Sequence record: NC_048186.1
DNA length: 64,000 nucleotides
Strand: one strand, 5' to 3'
From: Escherichia phage vB_EcoM_KWBSE43-6
Below are positions 6,798 to 54,502 of the stretch, in pieces. Both the position numbers and the translations under genes were made by a program. The first letter of the stretch is position 1. Each line of letters begins with the position of its first letter. The notes under the pieces were generated by a model, which saw only the letters and a list, made by a program, of their open reading frames with translations, searched no databases and was not told the DNA's origin.

Positions 6798-7097
6798 ATG
6801 ATTAAAGCAATCAAAGGGGATTTCACTGCTGTAACTTCAGTAGGAGAAATTTCATATCAATACGCTACTGTCCAGACTTTTCGGGGAGATGCAACGAGCG
6901 TGACCGTAGATGTATTTCTTTCCGATCGCTGGATTATCCAACGGGACGGGATCAATGTGGTAGATGATACTGCGCCTGGATTTTTCAAATCTGTACAGTT
7001 TGCTCCTGATTGGCAGAGCAGTTTGAATATCATAGATCAGGCTTATGAATATTTGAAAAGTCTTCCAGAGTTTTCAAATTCTACTGATGTTGTATAA
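6798..7097 (+). CDS. hypothetical protein, 99 aa
   Basis: ATG 6798 with GGAGG 8 nt upstream; overlaps end of preceding tail-spike gene. Confidence 0.5.
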   Translation: MIKAIKGDFTAVTSVGEISYQYATVQTFRGDATSVTVDVFLSDRWIIQRDGINVVDDTAPGFFKSVQFAPDWQSSLNIIDQAYEYLKSLPEFSNSTDVV

Positions 7098-7130
7098 AGT
7101 TAAGGGGGCTAGACCCCCTTAACTTATTTT
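7097..7130. terminator. bidirectional rho-independent terminator
   Basis: 12-bp perfect stem AAGTTAAGGGGG / CCCCCTTAACTT, loop ctaga, T-tract after; A-tract before serves the minus strand. Confidence 0.6.
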
Positions 7131-7372
7131 TCTATTTGTACAACAATCCCGTTTTCTTTTAAAACAGCTTCCAATTGCTCAATATGTAGCCTTAAATTTG
7201 AGTAGACGGTCGCTGCGATCAAAATTTCTTCACTTAATTTAACAGGTGAGTGAAGTGCGTCTATGTTAAAATTTCCTCCTGACGCAATAACTTTTCCATC
7301 TTCGTTAAATGTGTAGATGCAAGGATCTGGTTTATTTTTCTTAATCTTTATCAGTATTTCTTGTTTCCCCAT
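7124..7372 (-). CDS. hypothetical protein, 82 aa, opposite orientation inside tail-spike cluster
   Basis: ATG (minus) at 7370-7372 with GGAGA 9 nt upstream; stop lies in bidirectional terminator. Confidence 0.45.
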   Translation of the reverse strand: MGKQEILIKIKKNKPDPCIYTFNEDGKVIASGGNFNIDALHSPVKLSEEILIAATVYSNLRLHIEQLEAVLKENGIVVQIEK

Positions 7373-50058: not shown

Positions 50059-50202
50059 ATGGATTCCTGTCTATTAGATCCCGAGAACGTTCTTGTGGTT
50101 GAAATTGAAAACAACAAGCCGTTCATTTTGAAAATGTTGGAGAAGGATAATAATCCTGAAACCAATCCTAAACTATCCCAAAAGGGGAATAACGATGATT
50201 GA
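50059..50202 (+). CDS. small protein, 47 aa
   Basis: ATG 50059 after GAGG; not in ORF track; overlaps next gene start. Confidence 0.3.
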   Translation: MDSCLLDPENVLVVEIENNKPFILKMLEKDNNPETNPKLSQKGNNDD

Positions 50203-52448
50203 ATCATTAGAATTTAAGAATGCCACACAGACGGTCGCTCCTTCCAATCACGTCATCGTCGTTGACATTTCTTATTCCATGTGTTATGCGCTGCCGAAAC
50301 TGCGCCAGCACCTGAAAGAAAACCTGCCCTCCCTGGTTAAGCCGGAAGACACCGTCAGTATTCTGTACTTCTCTTCTCGTGGCGACTTCGGTACTGTGTT
50401 CGCTGGGCGCCAGGTCACCAACGCATCTGACCTGAGTGAGCTGGGTAAACTGATCGATCGCTTCCTGCAACCAACTGGCTGCACCGGATTTGTTGAGCCG
50501 CTCAAGCTGGCTATCGAAACCGCCAACGATCTGAAAAAGTCCGGCGTCATCAATTCCCTGGTGTTCATGACCGACGGTTATGACAACTGCTGGCGTTCCA
50601 GTGAAATTCTCGCGGTCGCAGAGCAGCTGCCAAAGGCGTACGACAACATCACGCTGATCGAATACGGCTGGAACTGCAACCGGGAACTGCTGCAGAAAAT
50701 GGCAGAGTGCTCTGGTGCCACCCATGTATTCGCCGAAGGCCAGGAAGAATATCAGATCGAACTGGAAACAGCGATGGTTTCTGTCGCTCCGCGCGTTCGC
50801 GTTGATTTCAGTATCATCTATTCCTATGCCGTTTATATCGAAAACGGGATTCCGACCATCCTGGCCGCCCAGTCTGATGAAGACCATCCTATCAATTACG
50901 TCAACATCCCTGAGAGCGTCTCTAAGCTGTGGGTTGTTGATCCTGATATGATCGACCAACTGGATAACCTGGCGGACGTTGAAGCGGCATATGTGCTGGC
51001 TCTCTTTGGCGTGCATACTATGGATGCCGACCTGGTGTGGGCCGCGCTGAAAAAGACTGGCGATGTGCGCTTCATTAAACAGTACACCAACTGCTTCACC
51101 AAGCAGGATTATTCCAACATCAAAACTGACATCACAGCAGCGATTGTAGACCCGGCGCTGCGCGGTGTGGACGGTATCGATTACAATCTGGTGCCGCCGG
51201 AAGACGCAACTACTGTTGTTGATGTTCTGACTTACCTGGCGGGAGCAGATGCACAACTGGTTGTTGACCATCCCCTGTTCTCTTACAAGCGGATCGGTCG
51301 CGGTACGGTACAAAAAGCCGACGATACCGAAGACAAGCTGGCGGCAGAAATTGCCGAAGCCAAATCTAAAGAAGAGCGTAAAGCGCTGGCCCTGAAACTG
51401 GCTGAGCACGAAGACTGGACTCCTGTGTTTGAGCCGGTGAAAGGCGCGGGCGTTCCCATCAGCAATCTGGTTTACAACTCGGCCCGCCCGAACATCAGTC
51501 TGCAGACTGTGCAAAACGGGACCGTCATCATCCCGAAGTTCGCACAAAAGAAATACGATCTGCCTGAATCTATTGATACGTGGCAGTGGAAGAACTACAC
51601 CAAAGAAATACGATCTGCCTGAATCTATTGATACGTGGCAGTGGAAGAACTACACCATCGTCAAAGACGGTATCATCCATATGAAGACCCTTCCTGTGGT
51701 CTGCTCGGTGGAAACCGTATCTGAACTGGTTAGCAAAGGCGTTGAAGTTTACGGCGGGCCGGAAGTGTTCATCGTAAATCTGGGCAGCGTTCCTCTGGTT
51801 AACCGCGCGATGGTTAAGAACATCAGCGCCGCGCAGTTCTTTGCTGACCACGTCCGTCTGGAATCCCTGAAAGCCAAGCAGAAGGTTCTCAAATATTTCC
51901 GTGACGAACTGGTTGGGAAAGGTAATGCCGTGGGCCTGGCAGGCAAATACGGCTTTGAAGCGGCTGAGTTTTTGTCTGCGAATGGCATCCGCGATTACGG
52001 CTTCTCTCCGAAGACCGCTTCGGTTGAGTCTACTGATTTCTACATGAGCCGCGAACTCAATGTGAAGATCAAAGGCGCTTCCTCGCTGCCGTCAATTGCC
52101 GCCGTTCTGAAGAAACAGGCCGACAACAAAAAACTGAACGCAGCTGATCAGCTGATCGCTAATGCGCTGGCAGAATACAACGCCTTTGTCAAATCTCCGG
52201 CGGTGACTGCAGTTCCGGAAGCAACGCAGGCCAAGATCATTGAATCTTGGATCAGTGATGCTGCCAAGGCTGCTATCACCCAAGTCCGTGAGCTGAACAA
52301 GACCCTGTCCAAATCTCTGTATGCCATCGTTGCAGGCCATGGCTGGTTCACCGACCTGGATCTGGAAGAGTCCACCATGGAAGTGGAAGTTGATGGCGTC
52401 AAATACACCGTCAGTGCAGTCCTGGAAGAGAAAGAGATCAAAATCTAA
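50195..52448 (+). pseudogene. vWA-domain protein gene split into two ORFs (50195-51622, 51573-52448) by a 55-bp tandem duplication
   Basis: N-terminal vWA/MIDAS motifs (VVVDISYSM, FMTDG); removing one repeat copy restores a single ORF of about 732 aa with KKYDLPESIDTWQWKNYT read once. Confidence 0.6.
51547..51656. repeat. perfect 55-bp direct tandem duplication (2 copies)
   Basis: AAAGAAATACGATCTGCCTGAATCTATTGATACGTGGCAGTGGAAGAACTACACC at 51547-51601 and 51602-51656; 55 is not a multiple of 3. Confidence 0.9.
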
Positions 52449-52456
52449 TCAACTGT

Positions 52457-52478
52457 GCCGGGGAAACCCGGCCTTTTC
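52457..52478 (+). terminator. rho-independent terminator
   Basis: GCCGGG gaaa CCCGGC CTTTTC. Confidence 0.55.
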
Positions 52479-52492
52479 ATAAGGTATCCCAA

Positions 52493-52816
52493 ATGTCTAA
52501 GAATGTGTCTTATATCGATGTCATGCGCTTCCTTGTCCAGTATGCAAGTGACAATCTGAATATGGAACTGTGGCGTGAGAAGAAACACTCCGTAACAATA
52601 CAATCCGCGATTGACAAAATCGAAGATCAGCTGGAATCCCTGGCTCCTCTGCGCGTCAAAGAACATCTGGGTGGCGATGAACTTGACGCGATAGAGATCA
52701 TCATGGACCTGGAAGAAGAATATGATGTAGAGATCACGGATTATTGGGTCGGTTCTCATAAAGACGACCCAACCCTGGGTGAATTGGCAGAGCATGTGGT
52801 GCATCTTTTAAAATAA
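52493..52816 (+). CDS. acyl carrier protein-like protein lacking the phosphopantetheine-attachment serine, 107 aa
   Basis: EHLGGDELDAIEIIMDLEEEYDVEITD aligns with ACP [26 protein letters not shown]; canonical DSL is DEL. Confidence 0.65.
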   Translation: MSKNVSYIDVMRFLVQYASDNLNMELWREKKHSVTIQSAIDKIEDQLESLAPLRVKEHLGGDELDAIEIIMDLEEEYDVEITDYWVGSHKDDPTLGELAEHVVHLLK

Positions 52817-52828
52817 TTTTGAAGTTGG

Positions 52829-52857
52829 CTTTACTTCTTCAATAAATGATTTAATAT
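52829..52857 (+). promoter_or_regulatory. early-promoter-like element (-35 CTTTAC, 17 bp, -10 TAATAT)
   Basis: Contains 17-mer TTTACTTCTTCAATAAA identical to 34893-34909. Confidence 0.35.
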
Positions 52858-52909
52858 TAATTTTGTAGGGCGGGAACGGCTCCCGCCTGATTGAAGAAGG
52901 CACTATATT

Positions 52910-53155
52910 ATGGAACAACTACTCCCCGAATCCGTATGCACATACGTGCGCCTCGCAGGTGAAGGCCACGATGTAGCAACTCAACTTACCGACCTCATTC
53001 TGAGCTACGGTATCAAGAAAGTTAATTCCGTTGACAACTCTGGTGTGAAAGGCGACTATATCGTTCTGAACCACCGCGGTCTGAAGACCAATCCGGTATT
53101 TTTCGTCGGCGTTCATAAGAAAGATGGCCAGGAAGTCGTGGAGATCGTATCGTGA
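52910..53155 (+). CDS. hypothetical protein, 81 aa
   Basis: ATG 52910 after GAAGAAGG and hairpin GGGCGGG...CCCGCC. Confidence 0.5.
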   Translation: MEQLLPESVCTYVRLAGEGHDVATQLTDLILSYGIKKVNSVDNSGVKGDYIVLNHRGLKTNPVFFVGVHKKDGQEVVEIVS

Positions 53156-53388
53156 GTAATAAGAAAGTCGAAACCACGGTTGAAATTGAAAAGAATTGGG
53201 GTTTCCTGCGTGCTAAAGGTTTCCGCCGTGTGTATGCTGCGAAGGAAGTCTATGTCCAGCGTAAGGACGTTATCATTAGCAAGAAAGGTAAGTCCTGGGT
53301 GGCAGAAGAAGTAGACGAAGACGGCATCGTAGGCAAGATTAAGGCCAAGGCCGAAATCCTCTTCGCTCTTCTGAAGCAAATTAACTAA
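53152..53388 (+). CDS. hypothetical protein, 78 aa, basic
   Basis: GTG start overlapping upstream stop, GGAGA 7 nt upstream. Confidence 0.45.
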   Translation: MSNKKVETTVEIEKNWGFLRAKGFRRVYAAKEVYVQRKDVIISKKGKSWVAEEVDEDGIVGKIKAKAEILFALLKQIN

Positions 53389-53414
53389 AATCAATAACAC
53401 GGACGGGGTATGAT
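53386..53414 (+). promoter_or_regulatory. early-promoter-like element (-10 TATGAT in GGGGTATGAT context)
   Basis: ATCAATA-N8-GGGGTATGAT; overlaps hairpin GACGGGG...CCCCGTC so the two roles conflict. Confidence 0.3.
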
Positions 53415-53447
53415 TGCCCCGTCTATTTGAAATGCAGGAACTATACC

Positions 53448-53918
53448 ATGACCCGTATTAATGTCATTCCCGTTGAATCTCTGTGTGATCAGCATTTGCT
53501 CGCTGAATATACCGAACTGGCGCCTGTTGTCCTTAATGTTGTGAATGGAAAACGTCGCAATCTCAAAGGCGCTCCAAAACATTACAAACTCAACGAAGGT
53601 CATGTGTTATTTTTCCGGGACAAACTGATTTATCTGATTGAGCGCTATGACCAACTTGTCACTGAACTGATATCTCGCGGGTATACCGTGAATTATCCTT
53701 CTCTTCGAAATCAGATAACTCATGAGAACAAACAGGAACTCCGGATTTATCTAAATGATTATCAACCGACTCAAGCTGCAGTCCAAGAAAATGTGGAACG
53801 CATAGTCGAAAGGTTGAAGGGTATGGGCAAAATAACGTATAACAGAAAGCCCGTAGATCCTTCTTATATGGTTGGCGTCATGAAACAGAATTTCGAATTT
53901 GGTGAGGTGGCATTATGA
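53448..53918 (+). CDS. denV: endonuclease V (pyrimidine dimer DNA glycosylase) DenV
   Basis: MTRINVIPVESLCDQHLLAEYTELAPV...GHVLFFRDKL matches T4 DenV N-terminus. Confidence 0.8.
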   Translation: MTRINVIPVESLCDQHLLAEYTELAPVVLNVVNGKRRNLKGAPKHYKLNEGHVLFFRDKLIYLIERYDQLVTELISRGYTVNYPSLRNQITHENKQELRIYLNDYQPTQAAVQENVERIVERLKGMGKITYNRKPVDPSYMVGVMKQNFEFGEVAL

Positions 53919-54223
53919 CAGATTTTATAGTCCCTCCAGCCTCATTCCTTCGCGTGAAAAATGAAGTGAAGGAAATCACGGGCTGTACTCACAAAGAATC
54001 TACGACTATCACCATGATGCTGGAAGCAAAAATGTTGGTAGATTCAGAGGATACAAAAGCGGCACTGAATTCTCTGTTGGCTCTTATTATCCGAGCGTAC
54101 CGAATCCCTGCTATTTCAGATGCGGACGATTTGGTTAAACTCCTCAACACTGGAGGGAAAGAATATGATTCCCTCCGCATCTTTATGACCGGTATACAAG
54201 AAGGTGGTTGGTATGAATCTTAA
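53915..54223 (+). CDS. hypothetical protein, 102 aa
   Basis: ATGA overlap with denV stop. Confidence 0.5.
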   Translation: MTDFIVPPASFLRVKNEVKEITGCTHKESTTITMMLEAKMLVDSEDTKAALNSLLALIIRAYRIPAISDADDLVKLLNTGGKEYDSLRIFMTGIQEGGWYES

Positions 54224-54389
54224 TTGGGAATTAATGGGTTGGATCCTTTGCTCCATTTTTGGCGTATTGGGTATTCTGTGGATTATTGTTGGTATCTGGT
54301 TCTATCGGGTTATTACACAATATGAAGCGCGTAAAGCGGAGCGCCAGGTACGCCAGGAAGAAATTCGCAATCGCCGGGAGAACTGGTGA
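54213..54389 (+). CDS. small membrane protein, 58 aa
   Basis: ATG 54213; hydrophobic helix WILCSIFGVLGILWIIVGIWFY then basic tail. Confidence 0.4.
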   Translation: MNLNWELMGWILCSIFGVLGILWIIVGIWFYRVITQYEARKAERQVRQEEIRNRRENW

Positions 54390-54502
54390 TGGAAGAAAAT
54401 ATCTGGCATGTCATCGGCGGCAATCTGTTGGGTATTCTGATCGTCTGGTTCTGTTATTGGTTCGGTGGCAAGCTGGCTAAATTTTTCCACGGACGTGACT
54501 AA
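54389..54502 (+). CDS. small membrane protein, 37 aa
   Basis: ATG overlapping upstream stop; single hydrophobic helix; not in ORF track. Confidence 0.25.
   Translation: MEENIWHVIGGNLLGILIVWFCYWFGGKLAKFFHGRD

Follow-up and report, generated by a model that had tools for sequence, protein, structure and literature searches.

Why would a phage keep a carrier protein that lacks the residue on which carrying depends? The question is raised by an open reading frame (ORF) in a 64,000-nucleotide stretch of Escherichia phage vB_EcoM_KWBSE43-6 (NC_048186.1; hereafter the window), which lies at positions 52493-52816 on the plus strand, stop codon included, and encodes a homolog of the bacterial acyl carrier protein (ACP) AcpP with glutamate in place of the serine that bears the 4΄-phosphopantetheine arm. 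A first-pass annotation, made from the letters of the window alone, had suggested that such a serine-less protein could act as a decoy for host ACP-binding proteins. We confirmed the ORF, whose product is the 107-residue protein quoted in that annotation, with an isoelectric point (pI) of 4.5 and a net charge of about -14, an acidity on par with that of AcpP. The source phage is a Taipeivirus-like member of the Ackermannviridae, and the region from 51.5 to 54.5 kb is 94-97% identical to the Klebsiella phages phi1_175010, 0507-KN2-1 and UPM 2146. The identical protein is on public record as 'acyl carrier protein' in vB_EcoM_KWBSE43-6 and in phi1_175010.

Homology to acyl carrier proteins and predicted fold

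We compared the protein with sequence families and with AcpP itself. The Pfam family PP-binding (PF00550) matched residues 58-102 with 27.1 bits, its gathering cut-off being 20.8, and BLASTP against Escherichia coli AcpP returned 16 identities over 27 positions (residues 57-83 versus AcpP 31-57, E = 3e-9). A profile of the phage family searched against the sequences in the PDB had ACPs as its sole matches (best E ~3e-8), and the phage profile PHROG 4154, itself named 'acyl carrier protein', was matched with E = 1.1e-53 (residues 1-107 versus profile positions 1-108). Judged from these comparisons of sequence, the similarity to ACPs is well above chance. An AlphaFold2 model, computed from an input alignment of 19 sequences, gave the four-helix bundle of carrier proteins with a mean pLDDT of 76.6; the values reached about 90 in residues 71-107 and fell to 53-56 in residues 21-40. 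The first-pass annotation had named the lack of such a bundle in a structure prediction as evidence against its proposal; the bundle was obtained, and this objection does not arise. By both sequence and fold, the protein belongs to the PP-binding superfamily, as had been claimed. The further claim that its C-terminal 60 residues align almost residue for residue with ACP proved correct for about 27 residues, the remainder being similar at the level of the fold only.

The elements of the bundle could be assigned along the ORF. Residues 7-21 (52511-52555, +), in which Y7 and V10 are nearly invariant, form an N-terminal helix that we matched to helix I by aligning ACP-sized relatives with E. coli AcpP, in agreement with the model and with conservation. 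They are followed by a family-specific and variable insertion in loop 1 (residues 22-50; 52556-52642, +), which is modelled with low confidence and shows a mean pairwise identity of 17.7%. Alignments and BLASTP place the former attachment motif, recognition helix II and the beginning of helix III in residues 59-83, LGGDELDAIEIIMDLEEEYDVEITD (52667-52741, +). Between helices III and IV, alignment and conservation define a loop of the form Y-W-x-G-x-x-x-D-D-P-T-x-G (residues 84-96; 52742-52780, +), in which P93 is invariant and W85, D91 and T/S94 are nearly so, and the predicted model assigns residues 97-107 (52781-52813, +) to helix IV. The extra length of the protein consists of the loop-1 insertion, of about 28 residues, and of the longer loop before helix IV (W85...D91-D92-P93-T94). 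Membership in the superfamily is not a reason to file the protein as a functional acyl carrier protein, which should not be done: the attachment serine is absent, and the scores failed the cut-offs of the NCBIfam AcpP equivalogs NF002149/TIGR00517 (33.7 versus 106 bits and 29.5 versus 70.45 bits).

Replacement of the attachment serine by glutamate or aspartate

The codon GAA at 52679-52681 (+) encodes Glu63, which sits within LGGD-E-LD and aligns exactly with Ser36 of AcpP. Every serine codon is at least two base changes away from any codon for Glu or Asp; a single-base sequencing error is therefore excluded as the origin of Glu63. We then determined how far the replacement extends. The ACP-like gene was found by tblastn in 269 phage records, all of which resemble Ackermannviridae of ~150-160 kb and whose hosts are Salmonella, Klebsiella, Escherichia, Dickeya, Shigella, Serratia, Enterobacter and Yersinia. 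A profile search run exhaustively over 1.84 billion cluster representatives yielded nine full-length family members at the 50% identity level, and the contigs examined for these nine were all Ackermannviridae-like. The serine column was occupied by E or D in 18 of 18 close and mid-range homologs, by E in five and D in four of the nine cluster representatives, and across 13 divergent representatives it reads EEDEEDEDEDEED, which is likewise solely Glu and Asp. Neither Ala, Gly, Asn nor Thr was present in this column among the family members examined. The reported presence of Glu at the site of phosphopantetheinylation was thus accurate, and it extends to the whole family as a choice between two acidic residues. 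That Glu and Asp are the sole replacements suggests that a negative charge at the serine site is itself selected.

Because the attachment serine is replaced by Glu, or by Asp in some relatives, 4΄-phosphopantetheine can almost certainly no longer be received, and the serine of the D-S-L motif at the N-terminus of helix II, the mark of a holo-ACP, was found in no family member examined. A search of the Ackermannviridae records by tblastn with an approximate E. coli AcpS sequence, which addresses phosphopantetheinyl transferases (PPTases) of the AcpS type only, detected no AcpS-like gene in any record, and a phage-encoded PPTase was rejected on this result. No fatty-acid, polyketide, acyl-activating or condensing genes were present near the ACP-like gene, which shows none of the genomic association with PPTases or acyl enzymes (fatty-acid synthases, polyketide synthases, non-ribosomal peptide synthetases or acyl-ACP synthetases) that would mark a functional carrier. 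We also considered T94 and other residues as a substitute attachment site and rejected them; T94 is unlikely in this role because some serine-bearing ACP relatives have the same DDPT loop.

Conservation of the recognition surface

Helix II is the surface by which ACP is recognized, as the first-pass annotation had stressed, and it is the best-conserved segment of the phage protein: mean pairwise identity was highest for residues 59-77, at 58%, and lowest for the loop-1 insertion. D62, L64, E68, M71 and E74, which correspond to D35, L37, E41, M44 and E47 of AcpP, are invariant in an alignment that includes E. coli AcpP. D65, I81 and D83 (AcpP D38, I54 and D56) are nearly invariant, and the position of E75, equivalent to AcpP E48, is mostly acidic. 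The residues that make up the recognition surface of AcpP (D35, D38, E41, M44, E47 and E48) are accordingly represented in the phage family. AcpS requires D35, E41 and E47/E48 of AcpP (bioRxiv 10.1101/2025.01.28.635281).

The conservation of this surface is set in a protein that otherwise changes quickly. Phages that share 73-87% identity in the neighbouring genes share 32-42% in the ACP-like protein, and despite this fast evolution the gene has never been lost in the Ackermannviridae. Fast evolution together with constant retention is a pattern typical of host-interaction proteins.

Acidic replacement in other phage-borne ACPs

The same substitution was found outside the Ackermannviridae. Among the 150 best representatives, 35 proteins had no serine-bearing domain, and 38 of the 50 non-serine domains carried Asp or Glu, a count to which the query profile, with Glu/Asp of its own in the serine column, lends a bias. 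A scan of the viral contigs in IMG/VR recovered 80 ACP loci, which after hand correction comprised 73 with Ser, six with Glu and one with Asp; these frequencies are not unbiased either, because one of the two scan patterns admitted only Glu or Ser. Two of the seven acidic loci belong to Ackermannviridae, and the other five (L073, L077, L078, L092 and L094) are unrelated to them. The latter encode AcpP-like proteins of ordinary length in which the DDPT loop is absent, and their neighbours are phage genes (among them those for dUTPase, a YqaJ recombinase and Lsr2), not enzymes of lipid or polyketide synthesis. Since each of the five, which are 45-58% identical to E. coli AcpP, resembles serine-bearing ACPs more closely than it does any other of the five or the window protein, several independent changes from Ser to Glu or Asp are the most economical reading. 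Serine-less D[DE]LD proteins were also present on the phage-like contigs L003, L004, L014 and L017; ACP-sized D-E-L-D proteins on such contigs are P0050, P0051, P0052 and P0186. The other serine-less clusters consist throughout of metagenomic proteins. The change from Ser to Glu or Asp thus seems, from these alignments, to have arisen repeatedly in phage-borne ACPs.

It is not a general property of such proteins. Ralstonia phage RSL1 (ORF083), Xanthomonas phage phiXF1 (gp111) and Yersinia phage fHe-Yen9-04 (g153) encode ACPs that resemble the Ackermannviridae protein in being small and in lying among genes of unknown function. They differ from it in having kept a normal DSL site, so that host AcpS could load them, whereas the Ackermannviridae family never has the serine.

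Some further variants were recorded. Vibrio phage 277E43-1 (OX241464.1; 2980-3513 of locus L018) encodes a 177-residue protein whose N-terminal part is ACP-like, with Asn at the serine site (LGFD-N-LD), and has a C-terminal extension of ~100 residues fused to it. Four metagenomic proteins of 228-425 residues (P0073, P0090, P0109 and P0122) contain two or three tandem ACP-like domains, each with Asp, Glu or Gly in place of Ser. The nearest serine-bearing relative with a DDPT loop, P0059, is found on metagenomic phage contigs with a terminase (L010-L012), where its gene directly follows a DAHP synthase/chorismate mutase fusion and lies near a PRTRC-like module of ThiF, E2 and ubiquitin-like proteins in a phage-like element. 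The acpP gene of 'Acinetobacter phage MD-2021a' (CAKLQH020000007.1) was discarded as a phage ACP, as it belongs to an ordinary bacterial operon, rpmF-fabD-fabG-acpP, among housekeeping genes; this record looks like bacterial sequence mislabelled as phage.

A possible mimic of host AcpP

What could a protein with an AcpP-like docking surface and no site for the prosthetic group do in an infected cell? We propose that it may be a non-acylatable mimic of host AcpP which competes for those ACP binders that are independent of the cofactor, a proposal to which we would give slightly less than an even chance. The protein would then be a 'pseudo-ACP', that is, a phage copy of a bacterial type II ACP that is unable to receive 4΄-phosphopantetheine and that has kept the fold of four helices together with helix II, whose acidic and hydrophobic residues host enzymes recognize when they dock AcpP. 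During infection, it would occupy the ACP-binding site of at least one host protein that does not need the cofactor and would compete there with the very abundant host AcpP, so that the activity of the target would be blocked or redirected. Candidate targets are PlsB, the glycerol-3-phosphate acyltransferase inhibited by apo-ACP; AcpS, whose natural substrate is apo-ACP and for which the mimic would be a dead-end substrate analogue; and the condensin MukB, on which apo- and holo-AcpP have the same activating effect. The acidic residue at the serine site might imitate the phosphodiester charge of holo-ACP, or it might stabilize the N-terminus of helix II. Binding to a host protein, the identity of the target and an inhibitory effect are what we infer.

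Published work makes these candidates reasonable ones. According to the account given in PMC3896788, which cites Keating et al. (1995), apo-ACP arrests the growth of E. coli through inhibition of glycerol-3-phosphate acyltransferase. Apo- and holo-AcpP stimulate the ATPase of MukB to the same degree (PMC8602292), and MukBEF is a documented phage target, that of gp5.9 of phage T7 (PMC7617805). The idea of a decoy is plausible in that it fits the conservation pattern, the recurrent acidic changes, the toxicity of apo-ACP and the existence of cofactor-independent clients such as MukB.

Other observations weigh against this proposal. Host AcpP is among the most abundant proteins of the cell, and because of this abundance a competitor would need high expression or a higher affinity. 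Scans for sigma-70 promoters, terminators and the T4 late promoter TATAAATA gave nothing decisive on the timing of expression, and neither did RNA folding of the two flanks. The loop-1 insertion and the DDPT loop are missing in host AcpP and could shift the specificity of the protein away from host ACP clients. The residues of helix II are structurally important too, and their conservation alone is no proof that docking to partners is retained. The estimates of how frequent the acidic substitution is carry the biases of the query profile and of the scan pattern restricted to E and S that were noted above. Finally, the constant adjacency of a gene for a VWA-domain protein with a MIDAS motif offers an alternative partner within the phage itself.

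A broader form of the proposal, which we regard as possible and hold only tentatively, is that the change of Ser36 to Glu or Asp represents a recurrent, convergent phage strategy, in which an ACP gene captured by different phage lineages would become a pseudo-ACP, permanently 'phosphomimetic' and closed to acylation, that takes over or disables a host hub dependent on the docking of AcpP.

Alternative explanations

The VWA-domain protein just mentioned is encoded immediately upstream (50195-52448, +; phrog_2426, ~732-735 residues in relatives) and has an intact MIDAS motif. VWA domains bind through an Asp or Glu of the ligand that completes the MIDAS metal site, as in integrin I-domains. The ACP-like protein could accordingly be a partner or regulator of the VWA protein, with the invariant acidic residue at the tip of helix II, or the group D62-E63-x-D65, completing the coordination of the metal. 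Such a pairing would agree with the complete and invariant MIDAS of the VWA protein (D24-x-S26-x-S28, T97 and D127) and with the position of the ACP-like gene, which directly follows the VWA gene in every Ackermannviridae-like genome or contig examined, the most divergent included. When the virions of a Vi01-like phage were analysed by proteomics, the ACP-like and the VWA protein were each detected once (PMC10892097); both are thus present at trace level only, by which they appear to be non-structural. On a bacterial-looking contig (L016; JGI 3300009320), genes for an ECF sigma factor, a YfbK-like VWA protein and a 543-residue protein precede one for a 138-residue ACP-like protein with LGADELD (6930-7346), so that a DELD-type ACP-like gene stands two genes after a VWA gene; this is a second, unrelated instance of a serine-less acidic ACP-like gene near a VWA gene.

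The adjacency is of little weight, however, because synteny is kept throughout the Ackermannviridae, and the pairing is weakened because VWA orthologs exist without an ACP-like gene. Full-length orthologs with 45-47% identity are encoded by the T4-like Slopekvirus phages and by Shewanella phage Thanatos-1, and a more distant one by Bacillus phage Goe21; an unfiltered hidden Markov model search found no ACP-like gene near any of these, and records with the VWA gene number 502, those with the ACP-like gene 269. Across all Ackermannviridae, copies of the VWA protein share 73-76% identity, which is a poor match for tight co-evolution with a protein whose identity is 32-42%. Moreover, the Ser-to-acidic ACPs of other phage lineages have no VWA neighbour. 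We therefore consider a partnership with the VWA protein unlikely. If it should be true instead, it would provide the first handle on a widespread phage VWA/MIDAS protein to which no function has been assigned.

A second alternative is that the protein has a structural or assembly role, without catalysis, in another complex of the phage or the host, for which the ACP fold would serve as a scaffold; such roles have parallels in nature. ACP-like subunits are known in mitochondrial respiratory complexes and in ribosome assembly intermediates, and the 'acyl carrier-like subunit' of Tetrahymena complex IV and trypanosome mt-SAF32 use the ACP fold for protein-protein association, not for acyl shuttling; these are eukaryotic proteins and stable parts of large complexes, and the comparison is made at the level of the fold only. 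The conservation of Y7, V10 and the W85...DDPT loop, which are specific to the family and unneeded for mimicry of AcpP, is what such a role would call for. Nevertheless, the strictest conservation falls on the generic docking residues of AcpP rather than on the family-specific ones, the same change of Ser to an acidic residue occurs in phage ACPs that lack the family-specific elements, and the protein was seen in merely trace amounts in virions. A scaffold role of this kind is, in our view, improbable.

The acidity of the protein raises a further possibility, namely that it acts as a general acidic decoy for which the ACP fold provides the scaffold. Like Ocr or gp5.9, it would then mimic DNA or counter host defence, and it would hit nucleic-acid-binding proteins of defence or repair in place of ACP clients. 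T7 gp5.9 and Ocr are comparable in that both are phage proteins of small size and high acidity which block host machinery by imitating a ligand abundant in the host, and MukBEF, the target of gp5.9, is also dependent on AcpP. They are, by contrast, DNA mimics of unrelated folds, whereas the phage ACP-like protein is homologous to the molecule that it would imitate. A pI of 4.5 with a net charge of about -14, fast evolution with constant retention, the location within a block of small accessory genes and the precedent of acidic phage mimics with several targets (PMC7617805) would all suit a decoy of this sort. Host AcpP, however, is equally acidic, so that the charge is inherited and not new; the hydrophobic docking residues L64 and M71 are invariant beside the acidic ones; and the PADLOC defence models gave a marginal match only (PbeC, E = 0.0023, 14.6 bits). 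We judge a general acidic decoy to have little probability.

That the protein is a true carrier whose modification uses an unusual residue, for which the conserved T/S94 and K56 would be the candidates, or an unusual chemistry is very improbable, given that T94 occupies the N-cap position of ACP helix IV and is also found in serine-bearing relatives with a normal DSL, that known PPTases modify the serine at the N-terminus of helix II, and that neither a phage AcpS-like gene nor acyl-activating or condensing enzymes nearby were found.

Flanking sequences and neighbouring genes

Between the stop codon of the VWA gene and the start of the ACP-like gene lies a GC-rich hairpin, GCCGGG-GAAA-CCCGGC, followed by CTTTT (52457-52472, +), which looks like a terminator and whose folding signal is weak (z = -1.8). 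From this hairpin to the ATG of the ACP-like gene, there is only a weak AGG resembling a ribosome-binding site. A second GC-rich hairpin (GGGCGGGAACGGCTCCCGCC; ~52868-52888, z -2.2) is located in the 93-nucleotide AT-rich spacer downstream of the gene. Further downstream is a run of small ORFs without assigned function and then an ORF for a denV-like pyrimidine-dimer DNA glycosylase (53427-53918; Pfam Pyr_excise, E = 6e-13), which has 163 residues here as against 122 for the annotated coding sequence at the matching place in phi1_175010. The closest genomes cover 84% of the interval 51500-54500, in three pieces; part of this block therefore differs from the nearest relatives.

The VWA protein had no match among PDB sequences, and its copy in phi1_175010 had none in Pfam at E <= 0.01; in NCBIfam, there was a sub-threshold match in the VWA region only. 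Several records label it 'tail protein', yet it was seen only once in the virion proteome. Inside the VWA gene of the window, a 55-nucleotide tandem duplication in perfect register (51543-51652; copies 98% identical) shifts the frame of the 732-residue ORF and splits it into ORFs of 475 and 291 residues that repeat the peptide KKYDLPESIDTWQWKNYT. The duplication was present in 0 of the 47 relatives that cover the region (446 nucleotides in those records versus 501 in the query), and it reflects either a mutation private to this genome or an artefact of assembly.

Novelty and significance

The first-pass annotation regarded this as the most novel-looking single gene in the window. As a gene it is not new, being already named 'acyl carrier protein' in GenBank and in PHROGs; the missing serine and its acidic replacement, on the other hand, are apparently unreported. 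Our literature search found no paper that notes the missing serine and no functional study, the gene occurring only in annotation tables. A published genome paper lists it merely as 'acyl carrier protein / PP-binding family' (PMC3220722), and it goes unmentioned in a 2024 review of the biology of the Ackermannviridae. What appears to be new is the strict family-wide replacement of Ser by Glu or Asp, its recurrence in other phages and the function as a mimic that these would imply. In several hundred database entries, the label 'acyl carrier protein' or 'auxiliary metabolic gene' implies the carrying of lipids, which is almost certainly impossible here.

The molecule that the phage protein most resembles is the AcpP of E. 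coli and Klebsiella (PF00550), with which it shares 59% identity over loop 1 and helix II, the docking residues and a similar acidity. It departs from AcpP in having Glu or Asp for Ser36, the loop-1 insertion of ~28 residues, the extended W..DDPT loop and no fab neighbours. In its proposed action, it would be comparable to the inhibition of growth by apo-AcpP (Keating, Carey and Cronan 1995, as described in PMC3896788), in which an ACP free of its prosthetic group binds clients and blocks an acyltransferase. Apo-AcpP is, however, an experimental or physiological state of a host protein, whereas in the phage protein the non-modifiable state would be fixed genetically, always by an acidic residue.

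ACP is among the most highly connected proteins of bacteria; it serves the synthesis of fatty acids, lipid A, phospholipids, biotin and lipoate and also binds SpoT, IscS and MukB. If the protein is indeed a natural ACP mimic that cannot be loaded, it would represent a new route of host takeover in phages that are candidates for therapy against Klebsiella, Salmonella, E. coli O157 and Dickeya. It could also be a tool for finding the cofactor-independent interactions of ACP and a lead for inhibitors of the ACP docking site. If the convergent strategy is real as well, the hub concerned might, for example, be membrane lipid synthesis, by way of PlsB or AcpS, or chromosome organization, by way of MukBEF. 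Proteins of this type would then form a new class of host-takeover proteins that are homologous to the cofactor protein they imitate, one of which the Ackermannviridae would have fixed as a core gene.

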